From Patescibacteria group bacterium (lineage in GTDB: Bacteria; Patescibacteriota; Minisyncoccia; Minisyncoccales; JAHCRE01), in NCBI GenBank assembly GCA_020148145.1, contig JAHCRE010000021.1, positions 2,538-66,537 of the forward strand: DNA of 64,000 bases, given 5' to 3'. Position numbers and translations under genes: made by a program. Positions 1,131 to 63,700 of this stretch are shown here, one piece after another. The notes beneath the pieces were generated by a model. That model worked only from the letters and a program-made list of their open reading frames with translations. It was not told the DNA's origin and searched no databases. Positions within the stretch are counted from its first letter, which is position 1. Each line of letters opens with the position of its first letter.

Positions 1131-3194
1131 ATGGTAAAACAGCATGCTAGAAAAAGAATTGAAGGGCTCAAAAAATTAATTAATCACCATCGTTATCTTT
1201 ATCACGTCTTAGATAGACAAGAAATTTCTGAAGCAGCTCTTGATTCTCTAAAAAAAGAGCTTTTTGATTTAGAGCAAAAATTTCCTGAATTTGTTACTCC
1301 TGACTCCCCAACCCAGAGAGTGGCTGGAAAACCCTTGGAAAAATTTGAAAAAGTTAGGCATTCCCAGCCAATGTTATCTATCAATGATGCCTTTTCTCAA
1401 AAAGATACGGAAGACTGGATAGAGAGAGTTTCAAAGCTTTTGACCGAGGAAGAAGTTTCTCAAATTGATTTTTTCTGCGAACTAAAAATTGACGGCTTAG
1501 CGATTGAGTTAATCTATGAAGGTGAAATTTTAAAAATTGGATCAACTAGGGGGGATGGGATTGTTGGTGAGGATGTTACCCAGAACTTAAAGACTACTGA
1601 AGCTATCCCCTTGAGATTAAGAGAAAAAGAAGAGATGATAAGAGATCTAAAAAGGATGGGCTCAGAAAGGATCGCCAAAGAAATTTCAAGGAAAGAACTT
1701 AAAAAAATTGTTGTTCGGGGAGAAGTTTTTATTTCAAAAAAGGAATTTGAAAGATTAAACAAAGAACAAGTCAAACGAGGGCTGGTTCCCTATGCCAATC
1801 CTAGAAATGTGGCAGCAGGCTCGATTAGACAATTAGATCCCAAAATTACTACTCAGAGACATTTAGACTCTTATGCCTATGACTTGATTACTGATTTGGG
1901 CCAGAAAACCCACGAAGAAGGGCACAAAATTTTGAAAGTTCTTGGTTTTAAAATTAATCCTAACAATATCTATTGTAAATCCCTAAAAGAGGTTTCTAAA
2001 TTTCACAAATTATGGAAGAAAGAAAGAGAAAAACTGCCTTATGAGATCGATGGGATTGTAGTTAATATTAACCCAAATAAAATTTTCAAGAAGTTAGGAG
2101 TAGTTGGTAAGGCTCCTAGGGGAATTATTGCCTTCAAGTTTCCCTTAAAGCAATCCACAACCATCATTGAGGATATTAAAATTCAGATTGGCAGAACAGG
2201 AAGCCTGACTCCAGTTGCTATTTTAAAACCGGTTGAGGTTGGTGGGGTAACAATTTCTAGAGCGACCTTACATAACGAGGATGAAATTAAGAGATTGGGA
2301 ATAAAAATTGGTGATACGGCTATTGTTGGTCGAGCCGGCGACGTAATTCCAGATATTATTAGAGTCTTGCCAGAGCTAAGAACCGGAAAGGAAAGAAAGT
2401 TTACGATGCCAAAGAAATGTCCAGTTTGCGGATTTGAGATCATTAAACCAGAAGGGGAAGTTGTCTCAAGGTGCGAGAATCCAAAATGTTTTGCCAAACA
2501 GAGGAGATATTTTTATCATTTCATTTCAAGGGGGGCTCTTGATATTGTTGGGCTTGGCCAAAAAATTATCGATAGGTTGATTGAAGAAGGCTTAGTTCAG
2601 GATCCAGCTGACCTCTTTATGTTAAAAGAAGGTGATTTAATTCCCTTAGAAAGATTCGCTAAAAAATCAGTAAAGAATTTAATAAAGGCAATTCAAGGCA
2701 AGAAAAAAATAACCCTACCAAGGTTTATTTATGCCTTGGGGATTAGAAATGTTGGAGAAGAAACTGCCCAGGATTTAGCAGAATATTTTGAAAGCTTCGA
2801 AAGGTTTAAAGGGGCCAACTCCGAGGAGTTAGAAAAAATTAGGGATATCGGTCCGATAGTGGCTGAATCAATTTATGATTGGTTTTCTAAAAAAAGAAAT
2901 TTGGAATTTTTGGAAAAATTAAAAAAAGTAGGAGTAGAAGTTATTATTGAAAAGAAAGTTAAATATCAGCCATTGAAGGGAAAAACTTTTGTTTTAACTG
3001 GTGGATTGGAAATGATAACCAGGGATGAGGCGAAAGAAAAAATTAGACTTTTAGGCGGAGAGATTTCTGAATCAGTTTCAAAAAGAACCGATTTTGTTAT
3101 CGCTGGAAAAAAACCTGGCTTAAAATACCAAAGAGCAAAGGAACTTGGTATTAAAGTAATCGGGGAAAAAGGATTCCTAAAATTACTAAAATAA
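1131..3194 (+). CDS. ligA: NAD-dependent DNA ligase LigA
   Basis: Adenylation motif ELKIDGLA, Zn-finger CPVCG...C..PKC, HhH and C-terminal BRCT-like region. The ORF track starts at 1047, but MVKQHARKRIEGL at 1131 follows the stop of the upstream gene. Confidence 0.95.
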   Translation: MVKQHARKRIEGLKKLINHHRYLYHVLDRQEISEAALDSLKKELFDLEQKFPEFVTPDSPTQRVAGKPLEKFEKVRHSQPMLSINDAFSQKDTEDWIERVSKLLTEEEVSQIDFFCELKIDGLAIELIYEGEILKIGSTRGDGIVGEDVTQNLKTTEAIPLRLREKEEMIRDLKRMGSERIAKEISRKELKKIVVRGEVFISKKEFERLNKEQVKRGLVPYANPRNVAAGSIRQLDPKITTQRHLDSYAYDLITDLGQKTHEEGHKILKVLGFKINPNNIYCKSLKEVSKFHKLWKKEREKLPYEIDGIVVNINPNKIFKKLGVVGKAPRGIIAFKFPLKQSTTIIEDIKIQIGRTGSLTPVAILKPVEVGGVTISRATLHNEDEIKRLGIKIGDTAIVGRAGDVIPDIIRVLPELRTGKERKFTMPKKCPVCGFEIIKPEGEVVSRCENPKCFAKQRRYFYHFISRGALDIVGLGQKIIDRLIEEGLVQDPADLFMLKEGDLIPLERFAKKSVKNLIKAIQGKKKITLPRFIYALGIRNVGEETAQDLAEYFESFERFKGANSEELEKIRDIGPIVAESIYDWFSKKRNLEFLEKLKKVGVEVIIEKKVKYQPLKGKTFVLTGGLEMITRDEAKEKIRLLGGEISESVSKRTDFVIAGKKPGLKYQRAKELGIKVIGEKGFLKLLK

Positions 3195-3245
3195 AATTGT
3201 GTGAGGCTAAGCCTCGAAAGCCTCGAACAATAGTCTCAAAAATTA

Positions 3246-4337
3246 ATGAAATCTTTTTTAGTCCATTTTAAGAAACTTGATTTAATTGTTATTGTCTCCA
3301 CTCTTTTACTTGTTGGAATTGGTCTTTTATCAATATATAGTTCTTCTCTTTCAAGGGGAGATTTTTTCAATTTTAAAAAACAAATTATTTTTTTGGTAAT
3401 AGGGATTTTTCTGATGATAGCTTTAAGTTTTTTTGATTGGCGAATTTTTCAAGATGACCCTTATTTAATTTTAATTTTGTACCTTATTTGCCTAGTTGCT
3501 TTAGCCGGTTTATTTTTTTTCGCTCCCGAAATCAGGGGAGTGAGGTCCTGGTATAAATTAGATGTAGTTTCAATTGATCCAATTGAATTTACTAAAATTA
3601 TCTTGATAATTTTATTGGCTAAATATTTCTCAATGCGTCACGTTGAGATGTATCGCAAAAGGCATATTTTAGTTTCTGGTCTTTATGTTTTAATTCCGAG
3701 TCTTTTAATTTTTTTTCAACCCGATTTAGGCTCAATTCTGATTTTAGTTATTTTATGGGTAGTAACCTTGATTATTTCAGAAATAAAAATTAGCCATTTT
3801 CTGACTCTTTGTCTTTTTTTTCTTTTGATTTTAATTTTAAGTTGGTCATTTTTTCTAGAGGATTATCAAAGACAAAGGATTTTGAGCTTTATTTCCCCTC
3901 AGATTGAACCCTTAGGTATGGGTTGGAGCCAGGCTCAGGCAAAAATTGCTATAGGGTCAGGGGGAGTTTTTGGCCAGGGAATTGGCAAAGGCTCTCAAAC
4001 TCAATACGGTTTCCTTCCTGAGCCCCACACAGATTTCATTTTCTCTGCTATTGCTGAAGAAATGGGCCTGATAGGTATTTTTATTTTATTTTTCTTATTT
4101 TCGATATTGATTTTTAGAATAATAAAAATTGCCCAGTTTTCCAGTAGTAATTTTCCCCGACTTTTTGCCTCGGGCTTCGCTATTTTATTGATTTCCCAAA
4201 TTTTTATTCACATCGGAATGAATCTGGGGATTTTGCCAATAATTGGCATTCCTTTACCCCTGATAAGTTATGGAGGAAGTAGTTTAATCATTACCTTCGT
4301 TGGTTTGGGTATTTTACAAAGTATTAAAATTCATTAA
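3246..4337 (+). CDS. SEDS family peptidoglycan polymerase (FtsW/RodA/SpoVE)
   Basis: Polytopic membrane protein with the typical C-terminal LPLISYGGSSL motif and an LPEPHTDFIFS block. Confidence 0.88.
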   Translation: MKSFLVHFKKLDLIVIVSTLLLVGIGLLSIYSSSLSRGDFFNFKKQIIFLVIGIFLMIALSFFDWRIFQDDPYLILILYLICLVALAGLFFFAPEIRGVRSWYKLDVVSIDPIEFTKIILIILLAKYFSMRHVEMYRKRHILVSGLYVLIPSLLIFFQPDLGSILILVILWVVTLIISEIKISHFLTLCLFFLLILILSWSFFLEDYQRQRILSFISPQIEPLGMGWSQAQAKIAIGSGGVFGQGIGKGSQTQYGFLPEPHTDFIFSAIAEEMGLIGIFILFFLFSILIFRIIKIAQFSSSNFPRLFASGFAILLISQIFIHIGMNLGILPIIGIPLPLISYGGSSLIITFVGLGILQSIKIH

Positions 4338-24720: not shown

Positions 24721-25296
24721 TCATTTTAAAAAATCTAAATTTTTTGGCATTTTTTTTAAAGGTTTTTTCCAGCGAAGTTTTGGTATTTTTTTATAATTTT
24801 TATTTTTTATCCAACCAGATTTTGTATAGTAATAGCAGGCTCCCTGTTTTTTTTCAAATAAACGATAATCGTTTTTACATTTTTTGTTGATCCAATTAGC
24901 CATTTTCAATTCAGAATTTGAAGAATTAATTGCTAAATGGCCGAAATTTGGTGAAACAACAATGAAATCACCCCTCTTGGCCTTAACTACATAGACATCT
25001 TTTACAACATTTCCTTTACACTTTTGCATCAAAAAGATTACTTCCCCCTTTAAAATAAAATAGATTTCTCCGTATTTATTAGAATGCTCATGACCTTTGG
25101 TTTTAACAAATTCCCTCCCTAACATTCTGGAAGGAATAGAGGTTATATCATACCTTAAACTATTTTTTTCTTTAATTCCTCTCCAGACATAATAAAGTTC
25201 AAAATTTTGAGCAGTTTTTGCCCACCTTTGATCATAGAGAACATTTTCCATTTCTTTTAAGAATCGGATTTTGGGTTTGGTTTTTACCATTTCCAT
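24721..25296 (-). CDS. Cupin-type glucose-6-phosphate isomerase (archaeal-type cPGI)-like protein
   Basis: TKGHEHSNKYGEIYFILKGEVIFLMQ ... VVSPNFGHLAIN resembles the cupin PGI motif (T.GH.H...E.Y..L.G.g..llq ... P..aHr..N). Confidence 0.65.
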   Translation of the reverse strand: MEMVKTKPKIRFLKEMENVLYDQRWAKTAQNFELYYVWRGIKEKNSLRYDITSIPSRMLGREFVKTKGHEHSNKYGEIYFILKGEVIFLMQKCKGNVVKDVYVVKAKRGDFIVVSPNFGHLAINSSNSELKMANWINKKCKNDYRLFEKKQGACYYYTKSGWIKNKNYKKIPKLRWKKPLKKMPKNLDFLK

Positions 25297-25315
25297 GCCC
25301 TCTTTGTCTTAATGT

Positions 25316-25507
25316 ACCAATTCGTCGCGGCACGCGTCCGAGCCCACAGATTATGTGCTCGGCGCTAACACCGCTCCTTAGAAACCCACGGTTTCTAACG
25401 CTCGCTTTCAGCTCGCTGTTTTCCTTCATGGGGACGCCACCCACCCACCACCCTCCCGCTTCGCGGGCCCCTACCCAGTTTCCCCGACCCCCTTTGTGAA
25501 AATTGGT
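25316..25507 (-). ncRNA. G+C-rich structured intergenic element A (unknown class; related to element C)
   Basis: Closed by the 7-bp inverted repeat ACCAATT (25316-22) / AATTGGT (25501-07). Internal hairpins: TTAGAAAC-5nt-GTTTCTAA (25377-98), CCGAGC-13nt-GCTCGG, CCCGC-GAA-GCGGG. Orientation is inferred from block sharing with element C. Confidence 0.4.
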
Positions 25508-25510
25508 CCA

Positions 25511-27565
25511 TTATTTCCAAGCCCTTCGTGTTCGGATATACCAATTTTCAATTCCTGAAAATCTTTTTGAAGGGTCAGTAATTATCTTTACATTTATTCC
25601 CCTTATTTCTTCAGAGACAAAATAAATATAATCGGGATTGCACAAAAATACAACCGGAGCATCACTAATTAGAATTTTTTGGAATTCTTGATATTTTTCT
25701 GCCCCCTCTTTTTGGTTTTGAATCTGGCGTCCTTCCTCCAGTAATTTGTCAACAATTTCATTTTCATAAAGGGCTAAGTTTAATCCCGGGTCTTTTTTCT
25801 GGGAGGAGTGCCAGAAGGGAAAGGGGTCGGGAAAAGCACCCAAAACTTCACCAAATAATAAAACCTCATAATCTCGCGGTTTAATAATATCTCTTTTCAG
25901 GGCGGAGATATCGGAAGTCTTGATTTCAATTTCTACTCCTAGGGCCCGCCACTGATTTTCCAAAAGATTGGCAATCTCTATTAAAAATGGCTGATTAACT
26001 GTTACTAAAGAAAATTTGAGCGGTAAGACTTCTTCAGGCGCTTCAAAACAAACTTCATTTAATTTTGCCCTAGTGGTTTTACTTACTAGGCCGGTACCTT
26101 TTTTAAACCCCCAAGGTTCCAAGATCTCTTCTTTGTATTTTTCCTGAAATCTGATTACTGCCTTTTTGGTCAAATCTCCAAAAAGACCGGTAATTTTTCC
26201 TTCAGGATAAACATTGGGATCTTTAGCTAGACATTTTTGAAGTTCTTGAACTTCTGTTCCCCGAGAACCTGATTTTAAGTCGCTTTTAAATTGAAAAGCC
26301 TTCTCTTTTTCAATAGTTTTTTCTCTTAGACCTTTTTCATTTTCAAGGAACCCTGCCTCATCTAAAATTTCTTTAGCCTTTTCAATATTAAATTGATAAG
26401 TTTTAGAAGGGGGTGAAAATCCATAAATTTCTGGTAAAATCGGGGAGTCGACAATTTTTCCTTGCCCTATTAGAATTTTTTCTACGATTTCAGTCTTGTT
26501 GGTTCCATAATTTAAGGCCTTTCTTACTTTTTTTTCAGCCAAAACCTCTGATTTTTCGGGATTGAAAAATACGGCAAAATATCTTGGTAGAGAGAGATGA
26601 TAATCTAAAAATTGATTCTTTTTTAAAAGATGGTAATTTTTTAGTGAAATAATTGAGAATCCTTTAATTTCTCCTTTTTTGATATTCCCAATTAAATCTT
26701 CTTCTTTCTCAAAAAACTGAAAAGAGATTTCAGAAATATTTGGAATTTTACCAAAATAATTAGAGTTTGAGGTTAAAGCCAGAGATTTTATAAAGCCTAA
26801 CTCGTCTTTTTTTACCTCTTTTAATTTATAAGGCCCAGAACCAATAGGATTTGAATTATAAATTGCTAAAGGAAAATTTTGGGGAGAAATGTCCTGCCAG
26901 ATATGTTTTGGCAAGATTTTTAAGGTTAGATTTTCGAGAAAGGCAGAATAAGGATTTTTTAGTTTAAAACGGATAGTAAAATCCGAGATTTTTTCAATTT
27001 CTACTCCCAGCCAAGCTGCTCGGAGGGGGCTTTTGTAATCAGGGTCTTGGATTGTTTTTATAGTAAAGATTATGTCATCGACTGTTAATGGAGATTTATC
27101 GTGCCAAGAGACATTCTTTTTTAAATGAAATTCGAAAACCCTTCCCTCTTCTTTAATTTCAGGATAATTTTGGGCTAAATCGGGAACAATCTGACCATCT
27201 TGGGTATACTTCATTAAACCGGAAAAAATGAGTTCGACTAAATCTCGATCGACATCTTTGGTTGGAGCATAAATTGGATTGATAAATCTTGGGAAACCTA
27301 CTACCCCTTCAATATAAACTCCACCCGAAGCAGGCCTTATTTCCGTATTTTTGAAATAAAAATTGATTAAAAGAAAAATAAAAGAACTAAAGGCTAAAAT
27401 TAAGAAAATAAAAAAAGAAATTTTTTCTTTTTTATTTAAAACTTTTAAAAACTGCCTCCACTGTAACTTAGAAGGCATCCTTCCTCCAACTTTCTTAGAA
27501 ATCGGGGACCACAAAAATTTTTTGAGAGAGTTTAAAAAAACCTTTATCTTAAATTTACTTGACAT
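25511..27565 (-). CDS. Membrane-anchored ABC-type substrate-binding protein (family 5, peptide/nickel-like) with an embedded peptidoglycan-binding-like domain
   Basis: N-terminal TM helix and overall SBP_bac_5-like blocks (GSGPYKL, LNYGTNK...). The insert GTEVQELQKCLAKDPNVYPEGKITGLFGDLTKKAVIRFQEKY resembles PG_binding_1. Confidence 0.7.
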   Translation of the reverse strand: MSSKFKIKVFLNSLKKFLWSPISKKVGGRMPSKLQWRQFLKVLNKKEKISFFIFLILAFSSFIFLLINFYFKNTEIRPASGGVYIEGVVGFPRFINPIYAPTKDVDRDLVELIFSGLMKYTQDGQIVPDLAQNYPEIKEEGRVFEFHLKKNVSWHDKSPLTVDDIIFTIKTIQDPDYKSPLRAAWLGVEIEKISDFTIRFKLKNPYSAFLENLTLKILPKHIWQDISPQNFPLAIYNSNPIGSGPYKLKEVKKDELGFIKSLALTSNSNYFGKIPNISEISFQFFEKEEDLIGNIKKGEIKGFSIISLKNYHLLKKNQFLDYHLSLPRYFAVFFNPEKSEVLAEKKVRKALNYGTNKTEIVEKILIGQGKIVDSPILPEIYGFSPPSKTYQFNIEKAKEILDEAGFLENEKGLREKTIEKEKAFQFKSDLKSGSRGTEVQELQKCLAKDPNVYPEGKITGLFGDLTKKAVIRFQEKYKEEILEPWGFKKGTGLVSKTTRAKLNEVCFEAPEEVLPLKFSLVTVNQPFLIEIANLLENQWRALGVEIEIKTSDISALKRDIIKPRDYEVLLFGEVLGAFPDPFPFWHSSQKKDPGLNLALYENEIVDKLLEEGRQIQNQKEGAEKYQEFQKILISDAPVVFLCNPDYIYFVSEEIRGINVKIITDPSKRFSGIENWYIRTRRAWK

Positions 27566-32645: not shown

Positions 32646-34701
<2,056 letters not shown>

Positions 34702-37598: not shown

Positions 37599-37860
37599 CA
37601 CTCCATATCGGAAGGGGGTCGGTCAAGACGCGAGGCTTCTCCGCGAAACCTGCGAAGCGGGTTGAGTCGGAAAGCCCCATCTGGGAAACCATTCGGTTCT
37701 CCCGTATAGGAAAATATTAAAAACCGAAGGGACGCGAGAGTTCTTAGCTCTGCGGAAACTCCCGTCCTAGGGTTTTTAAAGAGCGAGCCCGAAGCGAGCG
37801 AAAGCGAGCGCCAGAACAGAGTTCTGGTGAGGGCGAGCGACTAACCTTTGTAATAGCACT
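37599..37860 (+). ncRNA. G+C-rich structured intergenic element C between pilB and pilC (unknown class; related to element A)
   Basis: Shares ordered blocks with the minus strand of element A: AAGGGGGTCGG (37612-22), GCGAAGCGGG (37652-61), CCCCAT (37675-80), GCGAGC-GAAAGCGAGCG (37794-810). These are followed by a hairpin (CCAGAAC-AGA-GTTCTGG, 37811-27). Confidence 0.4.
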
Positions 37861-38910
37861 ATGTTTTTTGTTTCTCAAAAAGAAAAAATGTTTTTTGCTG
37901 AGCATCTCTCTCTAATGATTAAAGGGGGAATACCTCTTACTGAGGCCTTAGAAACCTTAAAGAATGAGACTAAATCAAAGACCTTTAAAAAAACTTTAAA
38001 TAATATTTTAAAAAGAATTTTAGAAGGAGAGAGGCTAAACAAAAGCCTCGGACGTTATCCAAAAATTTTTGATAAATTTTTTTGTAATGTGGTTAAAGTA
38101 GGAGAAGAAAGCGGAACATTAGAAGAAAACCTAAAGTATTTAGCCGGCCAGATTCGATCAGATTATGAGATGAAAAAAAAGGTAAGTGGGGCTCTCATTT
38201 ATCCGGTAATTATCATTACAATGGCTTTAATAATTGCCTTAGTGGTAACCCTTTTCATTTTACCTAAAATAACTAATCTTTTTCAGTTTTTAGAAGTCGA
38301 ACTACCCCTGACTACCAGAGTTTTAATAGGTAGCACTTTCTTTTTTAAAAAATACTGGATTTTTATAATAATTGGAATAATTTTTTTAATTTCCGCTTTT
38401 AGAATTCTCCAAAGGTTTAAATCTACTAAATTTTATTTTGATAAAATCAGCTTTTCTTTGCCATTTTTTAGTCAAATTTTTAAAGGTCTTAATTTAGCTC
38501 GATTTTCTCGAACTCTTTATACTCTTTTAAAGAGTAGGATGCCAATTCTTGAGGCCTTAGAAATTTGTGCCGATACTCTCCCAAATGAAGTCTTTAAAAG
38601 AAGTTTAATTTTGGTTAGATCTGGCGTGGAACGGGGAGAAAAAATTAGTCAAGGATTTAAAAGATTTCCTCAAATCTTCCCCCCAATTTTTTCTCAAATG
38701 GTAGTGGTAGGGGAAAGATCAGGCGCCTTAGAAGAAAGTTTTTTATATCTGGCCGAGTTTCATGAGGGAGAAGTAGATTCTATTTTGAAAAATCTTTCCG
38801 GTATCTTGGAACCAATTTTACTAATTTTAGTTGGAGCTTTTGTTGCCTTTGTTGCTTTAGCAATTATTACCCCAATTTATCGATTTATCGGTGCCTTTAG
38901 ATTCAGGTAA
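37861..38910 (+). CDS. pilC: Type IV pilus platform protein PilC/GspF family (short N-terminus)
   Basis: Two T2SSF repeats (GIPLTEALETL...; RMPILEALEICAD...) and three TM segments. At 349 aa it lacks the about 50-60 aa N-terminal region of many PilC proteins. Confidence 0.88.
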   Translation: MFFVSQKEKMFFAEHLSLMIKGGIPLTEALETLKNETKSKTFKKTLNNILKRILEGERLNKSLGRYPKIFDKFFCNVVKVGEESGTLEENLKYLAGQIRSDYEMKKKVSGALIYPVIIITMALIIALVVTLFILPKITNLFQFLEVELPLTTRVLIGSTFFFKKYWIFIIIGIIFLISAFRILQRFKSTKFYFDKISFSLPFFSQIFKGLNLARFSRTLYTLLKSRMPILEALEICADTLPNEVFKRSLILVRSGVERGEKISQGFKRFPQIFPPIFSQMVVVGERSGALEESFLYLAEFHEGEVDSILKNLSGILEPILLILVGAFVAFVALAIITPIYRFIGAFRFR

Positions 38911-54757: not shown

Positions 54758-54794
54758 AAATATTTTATAATATAAGTGTCGCTTCGCGACACAT

Positions 54795-55124
54795 TCCGGC
54801 GTAGCGCAATGGTAGCGCGGGTGCCTGTGAACTTATACGCAGCTTCCTCGAGAAATCGAGGTTGAAAAACGAGGTGAATTGCGGGAAGCCTAATCCGCCT
54901 TAGGCGGAATGGTAATCCGCAGCCAAGCCCTGTGAGATAATTTCACATCTCATAGGGAAGGTTCAGAGACTATCCCGAAAGGGAGTACCCATTCAGAGAG
55001 TAAATTCTGAATGGGGAAGCGCCTCGCTCCCACAATTTTTGGGAGATGAGATAGTCCACCCTTAGTGGAAACACTAGGATAAGGTGTAAGCACTAGGTTG
55101 TAGGTTCGAGTCCTACCGCCGGAG
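54795..55124 (+). tRNA. tRNA-Asn (GUU) interrupted by a group I intron (exons 54795-54828 and 55087-55124)
   Basis: Spliced product: TCCGGCG-TA-GCGC-AATGGTA-GCGC-G-GGTGC-CTGT/TAA-GCACT-AGGTT-GTAGG-TTCGAGT-CCTAC-CGCCGGA-G. Discriminator G73 fits Asn. Thr(UGU) is the alternative if splicing occurs after U33. Confidence 0.8.
54829..55086 (+). ncRNA. Group I intron (IC3-like, no ORF) in the tRNA anticodon loop
   Basis: AATGGTAATCCGCAGCCAAGCC and GAAGGTTCAGAGACTATCC closely match blocks I recall from the Azoarcus tRNA-Ile and cyanobacterial tRNA-Leu introns. P7 GACTATC/GATAGTC. P1: exon CUGU pairs with GCAG (54839-42), with U.G at the splice site. Terminal G at 55086. Confidence 0.85.
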
Positions 55125-55125
55125 C
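55103..55125 (+). repeat. Direct repeat copy 1 (tRNA-Asn 3' end), GGTTCGAGTCCTACCGCCGGAGC
   Basis: Identical 23-mer recurs at 58172-58194. Confidence 0.9.
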
Positions 55126-55194
55126 AGGCTAGTGCTCGATTCGAGCGACCGAGATGCCTTTGGCTTGTGTCCAGTCCGCAAAGCTGATATTTTT

Positions 55195-57081: not shown

Positions 57082-57144
57082 GTAGGTTCTAATGTTGTCC
57101 ACGACTCGGAGCAGGTTAGTGCTCGGTTTGAGAGACCGAGCCGC
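57082..57144 (+). repeat. Degenerate tRNA-3'-end + flank repeat (module alpha), copy R2
   Basis: GTAGGTTCTAATGTTGTCCACGACTCGGAGCAGGTTAGTGCTCGGTTTGAGAGACCGAGCCGC. Compare tRNA end + flank GTAGGTTCGAGTCCTACCGCCGGAGCAGGCTAGTGCTCGATTCGAGCGACCGAG. Confidence 0.75.
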
Positions 57145-58129: not shown

Positions 58130-58221
58130 GGAGCAGACCGAGCCGCCTATCCCGTTAGGGCGACCGAGAGGGGTTCGAGTCCTACCGCCGGAGCCCGTCG
58201 CCCCGAGAGTTTTTCTCGGGG
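58130..58221 (+). repeat. Composite repeat R3: truncated alpha + GTTAGGGCGACCGAG hairpin + perfect 23-bp tRNA 3' end copy (58172-58194) + beta hairpin
   Basis: GGAGCAGACCGAGCCGCCTATCCCGTTAGGGCGACCGAGAGGGGTTCGAGTCCTACCGCCGGAGCCCGTCGCCCCGAGAGTTTTTCTCGGGG. Confidence 0.85.
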
Positions 58222-58286
58222 TTGATTTTGAGTTAGAGATTTGATAGAGTAGATTTAGATCGTTAACAAAAAATGGGAGTGAGAAG

Positions 58287-58584: not shown

Positions 58585-58647
58585 AGGTTCTAACATCGTC
58601 CGTCCCTCGGAGCAGGCTAGTGCTCGGTTCGAGGTGACCGAGCCGCC
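58585..58647 (+). repeat. Degenerate tRNA-3'-end + flank repeat (module alpha), copy R4
   Basis: AGGTTCTAACATCGTCCGTCCCTCGGAGCAGGCTAGTGCTCGGTTCGAGGTGACCGAGCCGCC. Confidence 0.8.
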
Positions 58648-60059: not shown

Positions 60060-60180
60060 AAAAGTTATTTTGATTTCTCCAAATAAAACAGAATTTTTCT
60101 CGGGTTTTATTGTGCGGGGAAAGAGGTACAATAATATAAAAATAAAAGGTCGATAGATATAAATTAAAACAAATGAAAAT

Positions 60181-63612: not shown

Positions 63613-63663
63613 AGGTTCTAGACCGACTACGGGAGCCCGCCGCCCTGAGAGTTTTTCTCGGGG
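63613..63663 (+). repeat. Repeat R6 (T-arm-like AGGTTCTAGACCGAC + acceptor-like GGGAGCCCGCCGCCC + beta hairpin)
   Basis: ...ACGGGAGCCCGCCGCCCTGAGAGTTTTTCTCGGGG versus R3 GCCGGAGCCCGTCGCCCCGAGAGTTTTTCTCGGGG. Confidence 0.75.
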
Positions 63664-63700
63664 TTTGTTTTGCGGGCGGTTTGAGTTATAATTAGACAAT

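Follow-up and report, generated by a model that had tools for sequence, protein, structure and literature searches.

Probable Insertion Elements with a Conserved Hairpin-Rich Core in Intergenic Spacers of Parcubacteria

Introduction

The 64,000 nt stretch of contig JAHCRE010000021.1 analyzed here (positions 2,538 to 66,537; hereafter the window) comes from a Patescibacteria group bacterium and contains a strikingly G+C-rich spacer, element A, between a gene for a solute-binding protein (SBP; family 5, SBP_bac_5) and a gene for a cupin-type glucose-6-phosphate isomerase (GPI). The closest protein matches of the window likewise assign it to a Patescibacteria/Parcubacteria metagenome-assembled genome. 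We conclude, with a probability of roughly 70%, that element A belongs to a family of small insertion elements of Parcubacteria, which are hairpin-rich, non-coding, and essentially selfish. A first reading of the sequence (the original prediction) had left two candidates, namely, a new structured RNA family or an insert resembling a miniature inverted-repeat transposable element (MITE). The MITE-like insert is favored because orthologous junctions are empty, the target duplications are long, and one core occurs at six unrelated junctions. The family is indeed structured, but a locus-specific cis-regulator or an essential processing site was not supported.

Results

One core at six gene junctions

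About 0.97 Mb of related Parcubacteria DNA was searched. The 80 metagenome loci (L numbers below), which surround uvrC homologues (58–65% identical) with 10 kb flanks, cover the equivalents of element A, the groES/groEL spacer, and element C, the pilB/pilC spacer of the window (37599–37860, plus strand). The family was defined by BLAST, nhmmer, and two covariance models, R1 (without A or C) and R2 (with A and C). About ten copies were found at six different gene junctions, all in sense orientation to the adjacent gene. nhmmer and the covariance models detected A, C, L061, L067, L072, L074, L036, and L112 with E values from 1e-32 to 3e-4, and partial copies were present in L082 and L034. R1 and R2 recovered A, C, and eight other copies, so that the further copies sought by the original prediction were obtained. 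When the whole window was scanned with filters off, only A (E = 4e-6) and C (E = 4e-5) were detected, that is, two copies per 64 kb. The junctions were as follows.

SBP/GPI junction: A, L067, and L072
uvrC 3' end: L061, L074, and a degenerate copy in L034
uvrC to uvrA interval: L036
groES/groEL junction: L112
pilB/pilC junction: C
ychF/rpsF junction: L082, apparently circularly permuted

The occurrence of one core at six unrelated junctions indicates movement between non-homologous sites at least five times. The cores at different targets were approximately 90% identical, and the UvrC proteins of the hosts approximately 60% identical. This similarity of the cores, like the assembly breaks inside C described below, may be a sign of recent movement. 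Core copies lay after stop codons or between genes, not in-frame within genes.

Empty sites, target duplications, and an inverted target copy

As had been proposed, presence or absence was checked at orthologous spacers, and junctions filled in one lineage were found empty in its closest relatives. In L042, the SBP stop codon overlaps the GPI start (GTATGGAAATGA), and the flanks of this empty site are 89.6% and 96.3% identical to those of the filled site in L072. The pilB/pilC gap is 2 bp in L034 (PilC 74% identical). At the groES/groEL junction, which is filled in L112, the alignment blocks of the two genes adjoin each other in L055. The 3' end of uvrC carries a copy in L034, L061, and L074, and no insertion interrupts it in the window, L044, L054, and L055.

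Direct repeats flanked five copies (matching positions, followed by the number of shuffles reaching the score).

L067: 36/37, abutting the element on both sides; 0/1000
L074: 41/46; 0/1000
L034: 32/41; 0/1000
L072: 25/31; 2/1000
A (DR1/DR2): about 27/34, with two small gaps; 14/1000

These A-type target duplications are variable in length (31–46 nt). On the downstream side of the L067 copy, the repeat does not code for protein, and a tRNA rather than a gene comes next, indicating that the duplication is a product of insertion and not merely of selection.

At its 5' end, the element repeats the initial 10–16 nt of the duplicated target in inverted form. At the SBP site, ACCAAUUUUC corresponds in this way to GAAAAUUGGU in A, and the copy is 16 nt long in L067; at the uvrC site (L074, L061, and L034), GCAAAUCGG corresponds to CCGAUUUGC of uvrC. 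The inverted target copy was thus found at two unrelated targets. The closing repeats are specific to their sites (ACCAAUUUUC at SBP and GCAAAUCGG at uvrC), with no terminal repeat common to all copies. The 7 bp repeat ACCAATT/AATTGGT, previously described as closing element A, is present (25317–25323 and 25501–25507, plus strand). However, it is not a terminal inverted repeat borne by the element: the duplicated target begins with the 3' arm, and the 5' arm is an inverted copy of this target sequence.

Parts of element A

Element A occupies the 214 nt spacer at 25297–25510, the G+C content of which is 58.4% compared with 35.2% for the window, in agreement with the earlier description of a G+C-rich spacer between two same-strand genes. 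The element measures 187 nt including a nested insert and contains no plausible open reading frame (ORF). Its parts and flanking genes, all on the minus strand, are listed below.

25511–27565: SBP gene (SBP_bac_5, family 5)
25513–25546: DR1, target copy 1, the final 34 nt of the SBP ORF, AATTGGTATATCCGAACACGAAGGGCTTGGAAAT; aligns with DR2
25498–25507: 5' inverted repeat ACCAAUUUUC, exact reverse complement of GAAAAUUGGU at 25540–25549
25484–25495: conserved 5' motif of the family core, AAAGGGGGUCGG, common to A, C, L061, L072, L074, L112, and L034
25427–25486: hairpin 1, CGGGGAAAC ... CCCC, split by the nested module, 3' strand partly lost
25434–25471: nested 38 nt G-rich module GGGGCCCGCGAAGCGGGAGGGUGGUGGGUGGGUGGCGU, composed of a GAA-loop hairpin and, after it, four G-tracts
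25417–25428: linker J1, UGAAGGAAAACA, with the conserved GGAAA (invariant in 9/9 aligned members)
25400–25416: optional hairpin 2, GCGAGCU-GAA-AGCGAGC
25378–25398: hairpin 3, UUAGAAACC-GUG-GGUUUCUAA, conserved in 9/9 members
25324–25377: 3' domain (P5), GGAGCGGUGUUAGCG, variable hairpin, CGCGUGCCGCGAC; core end GCGAC
25289–25322: DR2, target copy 2, AATTGGTACATTAAGACAAAGAGGGCATGGAAAT, the GPI ribosome-binding region and start codon
24721–25296: cupin-type GPI gene

The SBP stop codon TAA lies at 25511–25513, and the GPI start codon ATG (25294–25296) is supplied by DR2. The duplicated target starts with GAAAAUUGGU, and the 5' inverted repeat pairs with the start of DR2 (AAUUGGU), closing the element. 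The perfect hairpins reported earlier for A were all recovered: UUAGAAACC/GGUUUCUAA (9 bp), CCCGC-GAA-GCGGG, and CCGAGC../..GCUCGG. Folding was more stable for the sense strand (-76.3 kcal/mol) than for the antisense strand (-57.6 kcal/mol), with modest z-scores relative to shuffles (about -2 for A and -2 to -2.8 for the elements overall).

Relative to L067 and L072, element A consists of the core, the 38 nt G-rich module within hairpin 1, and an enlarged 3'-domain hairpin; the module is missing from these two otherwise collinear copies. The 5' motif has diverged in L067 (GGGGCGAUGG). At the position of hairpin 2, other GAA- or UGAA-loop hairpins occur in L072, L036, and L082, and none in L061, L067, and L074.

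The G-rich module is itself a dispersed repeat (consensus GGGTGGYGGGNGGGTTGKAGTCY), often placed after a GGGGCCC...GGG hairpin and found on both strands of many related loci, sometimes as inverted pairs. Its four G-tracts give it a G-quadruplex-like appearance. Often it is located within long ORFs, among them uvrA and uvrC, whose reading frame it preserves, a behavior like that of the Rickettsia palindromic elements (RPEs). Copies were located as follows.

Window: 25434–25471 (minus strand)
L036: 1870–1911
L054: 8782–8822
L066: 17419–17445
L072: 2984–3024
L076: 12371 and 12893
L102: 10335 and 10404

Core fold and covariation

The core, approximately 110 nt long, runs from AAAGGGGUCGG through hairpin 1, a GGAAAA linker, and hairpin 3 to a branched 3' domain, the last bases of which are GCGAC. 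The consensus of the 5' motif is AGAAAGGGGUCGG, that of the linker GUGGUGGAAAUA, and that of the 3' domain GGAGCGGUGUUAGC...GCGUGCCGCGAC. Intact hairpin 1 reads GGGGAAAC-loop-GUUUCCCC in L067 and L072 and GGGAGAACC/GGUUCUCCC in L112 and C; hairpin 3 reads UUARAAACC-loop-GGUUUYUAA and is preceded by the optional GAA-loop hairpin 2.

Because plain MAFFT did not align the helices correctly, either for A with C or for the members, covariance-model and hand-fitted alignments were used instead. In the structural alignment of nine members, 97% of the cells were paired and double changes occurred in 6/30 pairs. In contrast, when the partners were slid by one to three columns as a control, 36–49% of the cells were paired and 0–1 compensatory pairs were found. 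Three covarying pairs lie in hairpin 1, and the middle pair of hairpin 3 is G-C, A-U, or missing on both sides. In the 3' domain, GCGGUG/UGCCGC changes to GCAGCG/UGCUGC (L074) and GCC/GGC to GCG/CGC. Covariation thus supports the family, and the compensatory changes give good support for a conserved fold, although not proof, as the alignment of nine related sequences was fitted by hand to the structure. Both the U-G pairs, which are compatible with the sense strand only, and the folding energies suggest that it is the sense strand that folds.

Nested insertions of 38–170 nt are tolerated within the helices of copies, and helices are broken by inserts in A, C, and L074. As a side observation, the short motif GAGCGAAGCGA(G) turns up repeatedly, on one strand or the other, in several G+C-rich elements, namely, in L071 and in the 3' domains of L061, L067, and L074. 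A small ORF from AAGGAG-N4-GUG in the 3' domain was dismissed as a coincidence: in L061 it shares the frame of the uvrC remnant, but it is interrupted by a stop in A and absent in L074. A 5'–3' pseudoknot (GUCG/CGAC) was dropped because GUCG is missing in the L067 copy.

Element C and its likeness to element A

Element A, read on the minus strand, shares three 11 nt blocks with element C in the same order (AAGGGGGTCGG, YGCGAAGCGGG, and GAAAGCGAGCG), two exact and one with a single mismatch. In sense orientation the two elements have 13 8-mers and nine 9-mers in common, in antisense none, and these counts were reached by 0/2000 dinucleotide shuffles. The ordered blocks reported by the original prediction are therefore real, but their homology holds in part. 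Only AAGGGGGUCGG is a homologue within the core, and CCYGC-GAA-GCGGG belongs to nested inserts of both elements. The block GCGAGC-GAAA-GCGAGC occupies non-equivalent positions, preceding hairpin 3 in A and following it in C. The hairpin of preserved structure but different sequence was assigned to the wrong partner (GCCAGAAC/GUUCUGG): the counterpart in C of the 9 bp hairpin of A is UUAAAAACC...GGGUUUUUAA, split by a 45 nt insert. Nevertheless, the idea was right, as C and L112 carry different hairpins at one place of the 3' domain.

Element C is about 240 nt long. Its core is interrupted by two nested inserts, one of 59 nt that follows the 5' motif and one of 45 nt within the hairpin 3 loop. 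Both inserts were defined by collinearity with the uninterrupted L112 copy and by covariance-model alignment. Its parts, all on the plus strand, are as follows.

37603–37622: 5' motif CCAUAUCGGAAGGGGGUCGG, matching the L112 copy (CCACAUCGGAAAGGGGUCGG) and A
37623–37681: nested insert 1 (59 nt), holding the CCUGC-GAA-GCGGG hairpin, missing from the L112 copy
37682–37716: hairpin 1, UGGGAAACC-AUUC-GGUUCUCCCG, and linker UAUAGGAAAAUA, from the R2 alignment
37717–37779: hairpin 3, UUAAAAACC ... GGUUUUUAA, with nested insert 2 (37726–37770) in the loop
37780–37860: 3' domain with GCGAGC repeats, hairpin GCCAGAAC/GUUCUGG, and the end GGGCGAGCGAC at 37841

A 19 nt tail follows GGGCGAGCGAC up to the pilC ATG at 37861. 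L112 carries the hairpin 3 of C with a 4 nt loop, and its 3' domain is collinear with that of C (GAGCCCGAAG..GAAA.., hairpin UGUC-GAAG-ACAG, GGGCGAGCGAC, and the tail ..CCACUAUG).

Within C (~37603–37770), three assemblies of the source sample SRR10836662 / SAMN13740702 are broken or change to another sequence. ENA scaffold_27 ends at window position ~37669, and a Logan contig starts at 37769. In ENA scaffold_119, C and pilC (99.98% identical) are joined to a different histidine kinase, response regulator, and pilB; this pilB is 45% identical at the protein level, and the element start behind it differs by one base. This arrangement suggests a second organism in the sample with a near-identical copy after its own pilB, the alternative being a chimeric assembly. 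The pilB–pilC join of the window agrees with the gene order of relatives.

Two further spacers deserve mention. The pilB/pilC spacer of a 72%-identical relative (L036:9899–10000, L037:447–548) holds an unrelated 102 nt sequence that includes GTTTTC-TCGCTTCGCTC-GAAAAC. The groES/groEL spacer of the window (32937–33086, plus strand) contains another G+C-rich structured element, probably the "element B" of the original prediction. It is near-identical in L034 (5215–5365), with apparent compensatory changes (CGACCTGTCA..TGACAGG versus CGGCCTATCA..TGATAGGCC). L036 (5195–5379) has the same ends and a different interior, L055 lacks the element, and L112 (4900–5100, minus strand) carries a copy of the A/C family in its place.

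Searches for known RNAs, signals, and enzymes

No match to a known RNA family was found for A, C, or the canonical L067 copy in Rfam 15 with permissive filters and E = 10, in line with the earlier failure to assign A to a family; the best scores were 11–22 bits, compared with gathering thresholds of 45–91. Ribozyme signatures and Rfam ribozyme matches were likewise absent from these three sequences at that threshold. These short-region scans were relied on because a whole-window scan at gathering thresholds returned only two tRNAs and missed a true group I intron. No promoter-like site was seen in A or C, and no terminator-like site on either strand; an intrinsic terminator or attenuator was rejected, as neither element has a G+C hairpin followed by a U tract on either strand.

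No transposase, integrase, or reverse transcriptase (RT) gene was found in the window or near any copy. A diversity-generating retroelement was rejected: the repeat differences are not adenine-specific, no RT lies nearby, and at about 40 nt the repeats are too short. Viral contigs (searched with core and G-module patterns), a phage collection, and a plasmid collection gave no match. The pattern AAGGGGGTCGGN{10,40}GCGAAGCGGG gave 32 matches over species-representative genomes; these are attributed to chance, since all lie in high-G+C genomes and none in the Candidate Phyla Radiation (CPR). The pattern is a poor probe because it spans the nested module of A. In the literature searched on repeats, MITEs, and structured intergenic RNAs of CPR and Parcubacteria, no description of the A/C element was found.

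Other G+C-rich repeats and a split tRNA

A group I intron interrupts a tRNA gene of the window at 54770–55145 (plus strand). Neither ARAGORN nor the Rfam scan of the whole window detected this split gene, but Intron_gpI reached 88.7 bits once the region was scanned by itself. The 5' half of the tRNA begins at ~54795, its last bases being ...CCUGU in the anticodon loop, and the 3' half extends to ~55125, with GGTTCGAGTCCTACCGCCGGA at its end. Read as CU-GU|U-AA, the sequence fits a tRNA-Asn interrupted at position 35/36, an intron site described for Patescibacteria (PMC13011429).

G+C-rich intergenic repeats were present on the plus strand of the window in two sets, at 55110–55145, 57097–57132, and 58598–58633, and at 58172–58230, 60090–60118, and 63614–63672. 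One set reads GTCC....CGGAGCAGGCTAGTGCTCGGTTCGAG.GACCGAG; in the other, the 3' half of the intron-containing tRNA is repeated (GGTTCGAGTCCTACCGCCGGAGCC), with a hairpin after it. The repeats lie upstream of paralogous membrane-protein ORFs (58689, 60181, and ~63702). In L034, near-identical G+C-rich palindromic segments (GGGTTTAGGGTAC.CGCCTGCCAGCGCCTCGAGCGCAGGCGAGTGGCGGGCAGGTAGGGTTTGGAG) occur at 1174–1417 and ~3150–3260, one inside uvrC and the other inside uvrA in the opposite orientation; uvrC encodes 488 aa in L034 and 437 aa in the window.

Discussion

Weighing the explanations

Several observations weigh against an essentially selfish insertion element. The strict sense orientation and strong conservation of the core would also fit an RNA useful to the host. 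By the shuffle test, C, L112, and L036 lack a significant flanking repeat, so that the full footprint of long direct repeats and inverted copy is seen at only two independent target sites, the SBP and uvrC ends, and the repeated filling of these same two sites could reflect vertical inheritance with loss. The copy number is low in the DNA examined (two per 64 kb and about ten per 0.97 Mb), with no sign of high-copy proliferation, and no mobility enzyme gene accompanies the copies. The small, hand-fitted alignment also limits the covariation. In addition, group II introns, the obvious source of a target-priming RT, are reported to be absent from Patescibacteria (PMC13011429).

The principal rival is a cis-acting structured RNA in operon transcripts that serves the host, possibly born by insertion and kept for its role as a 3'–5' exonuclease barrier, a processing site, or an insulator setting the expression of flanking genes. 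We consider this unlikely, although much of the evidence is compatible with it. The copies are invariably sense-oriented at gene ends or junctions, compensatory changes keep the helices, and the purine-rich single-stranded segments AAGGGGGU, GGAAA, and AAGGAG are conserved. Read-through is expected in the absence of a terminator, and the element start also follows the 45%-identical pilB of the putative second organism. Moreover, a high G+C content of intergenic regions is an established indicator of structured RNA where the genome is AT-rich. However, the same junctions are empty in the nearest relatives, including a pair that is ~90% identical, and the flanking genes are functionally unrelated (SBP/GPI, uvrC, groES/groEL, pilB/pilC, and ychF/rpsF). 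The L067 copy has only a tRNA downstream, and nested insertions of 38–170 nt are tolerated inside the helices. A host role as mRNA stabilizer or insulator is possible but would not be needed to explain the data, and a secondary role at the RNA level may exist alongside an insertion origin.

The remaining alternatives are weaker still. An origin of the whole cassette (direct repeats, inverted repeat, and core) from local replication errors, namely, template switching at a strong hairpin, followed by spread solely through homologous recombination between orthologous loci after DNA uptake and without any transposition machinery, could account for the recurrence of the same two targets across lineages with site-matched inverted repeats. 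It would also agree with the lack of a mobility enzyme near the copies and with the type IV pilus genes at this locus, as such pili can serve DNA uptake. We regard it as improbable because it leaves a ~90%-identical core at six unrelated junctions unexplained. Even less probable is a gene for a trans-acting small RNA or a self-cleaving ribozyme residing in operon spacers. The compact multi-helix fold with conserved unpaired nucleotides and no Rfam match would suit such a gene, and the seemingly circularly permuted L082 copy is reminiscent of RNAs with circular forms. On the other hand, A and C show neither a promoter nor a terminator of their own, copy number and location vary, inserts break the helices in A, C, and L074, and ribozyme signatures are absent. 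Finally, the original prediction had named chance similarity among G+C-rich debris as the outcome that would overturn it. A and C are both G+C-rich and full of short GC hairpins, with modest folding z-scores, but the shuffles never reached their shared 8-mer or 9-mer counts and the covariance models recover both, so this explanation is refuted for practical purposes.

Possible mechanism of insertion

Under the favored reading of an insertion element, the element would have landed at A where the SBP stop codon overlapped the GPI start. One duplicate would finish the SBP gene and the other would supply the ribosome-binding site and ATG of GPI; the insertion would thus be harmless, leaving both genes intact. 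An unrelated 38 nt G-rich module probably entered hairpin 1 of A in a later event. As no promoter or terminator was seen in A or C, the element is probably read through within the operon mRNA. The conserved fold may serve the propagation of the element itself, as RNA or single-stranded DNA, by an enzyme presumably encoded elsewhere.

The footprint to be explained has the form X-t1t2 / t1'-core / t1t2-Y, for which we prefer a staggered, target-primed copy-in. One target strand would be nicked at the left edge of t1t2 and become the primer for copying the element. The new strand, its ends drawn close by the fold of the element, would continue for 10–16 nt along its own primer, and the opposite strand would be cut 34–46 nt away. 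Such a snap-back on the primer would yield both the long duplication and the inverted target copy. This model is offered tentatively as an explanation of the footprint. Equally speculative is the wider proposal of a new bacterial transposition mode in which a non-autonomous structured RNA or single-stranded DNA element inserts by nick priming, a stagger of ~35–45 bp, and snap-back. In an alternative version, the 5' inverted copy would serve as a homing guide by pairing with the target. Recombination between or beside the direct repeats could lead to precise loss or to spread to the same site in relatives, and precise removal would fit the patchy distribution.

Comparison with known elements

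MITE target duplications are short and of fixed length (2–10 bp), whereas those of the A/C family are about 34–46 bp and variable. The termini of MITEs are borne by the element and derive from a parent insertion sequence; here, the 3' arm is target and the 5' arm its inverted copy, no parent was seen in the gene lists around the copies, and the copy number appears to be low. With a core of ~110 nt, 187 nt for A, and about 240 nt for C, all non-coding, the family falls within the size range of MITEs (<~500 bp). Like bacterial MITEs and small repeats (Correia/NEMIS, ERIC, RUP, and BOX), it is small, non-coding, hairpin-forming, and gene-adjacent, with direct repeats of the target, probable co-transcription with neighbors, and patchiness among relatives (PMC10969869). 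RPEs are likewise structured repeats that colonize a reduced genome without destroying genes (PMC10969869). However, RPEs are inserted in-frame in ORFs, as only the nested G-rich module of A is, and avoid damage by in-frame translation. The A/C core is untranslated, lies at gene ends or junctions, and avoids damage through target duplication; the comparison is one of behavior.

The GC clusters of yeast and fungal mitochondria, with the double-hairpin and "byp" elements, are also G+C-rich hairpins of AT-rich compact genomes, mobile, nesting or merging, and constrained in structure, and the mechanism by which they move is unknown (PMC4478555). They differ in their size of 30–60 nt and target duplications of 2–3 nt (AG/ACT), compared with a core of ~110 nt, duplications of 34–46 nt, and a bacterial host here. 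Repetitive extragenic palindromes (REPs) and the bacterial interspersed mosaic elements (BIMEs) are mosaic intergenic hairpin modules transcribed in operons, which may stabilize upstream mRNA. The A/C family resembles those of enterobacteria in being mosaic, intergenic, composed of several hairpin modules, and probably contained in operon transcripts. REPs, however, are 20–40 nt palindromes with a GTAG-type tetranucleotide, hundreds of copies, REP-associated tyrosine transposases (RAYTs), and no target duplication, whereas the A/C core is a multi-helix unit of ~110 nt at low copy number.

Long target duplications arise by target-primed reverse transcription, with variable length, and by Cas1-Cas2 integration, with a repeat length of 28–37 bp. 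Target-primed retroposons (resembling short interspersed elements) and CRISPR-type integration are alike only in this footprint: the variable long duplications of retroposons are present, but no RT was found in the DNA examined, and neither an A-tail, a Cas1 gene, nor a repeat array is associated with the A/C element. On balance, the A/C family appears to be a previously undescribed MITE-like structured element with an unusual insertion signature, and there is a real chance of a new insertion chemistry.

Significance

The genomes of CPR bacteria (Patescibacteria) are among the most compact, and overlapping genes are frequent in them. To our knowledge, almost nothing has been described of their non-coding or selfish DNA apart from self-splicing introns. 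We also know of no characterized bacterial transposition system that matches a 34–46 bp duplication combined with an inverted copy of the target start; the footprint may therefore point to an unrecognized enzyme.

Under the favored reading, small structured elements do colonize these ultra-compact genomes, account for many of the G+C-rich structured intergenic regions that would be flagged by RNA-discovery screens, and break metagenome assemblies, as at element C. A long target duplication splits an overlapping gene pair cleanly and so avoids damage. If the snap-back reading is true, the element could invade the gene overlaps of ultra-compact CPR genomes harmlessly.

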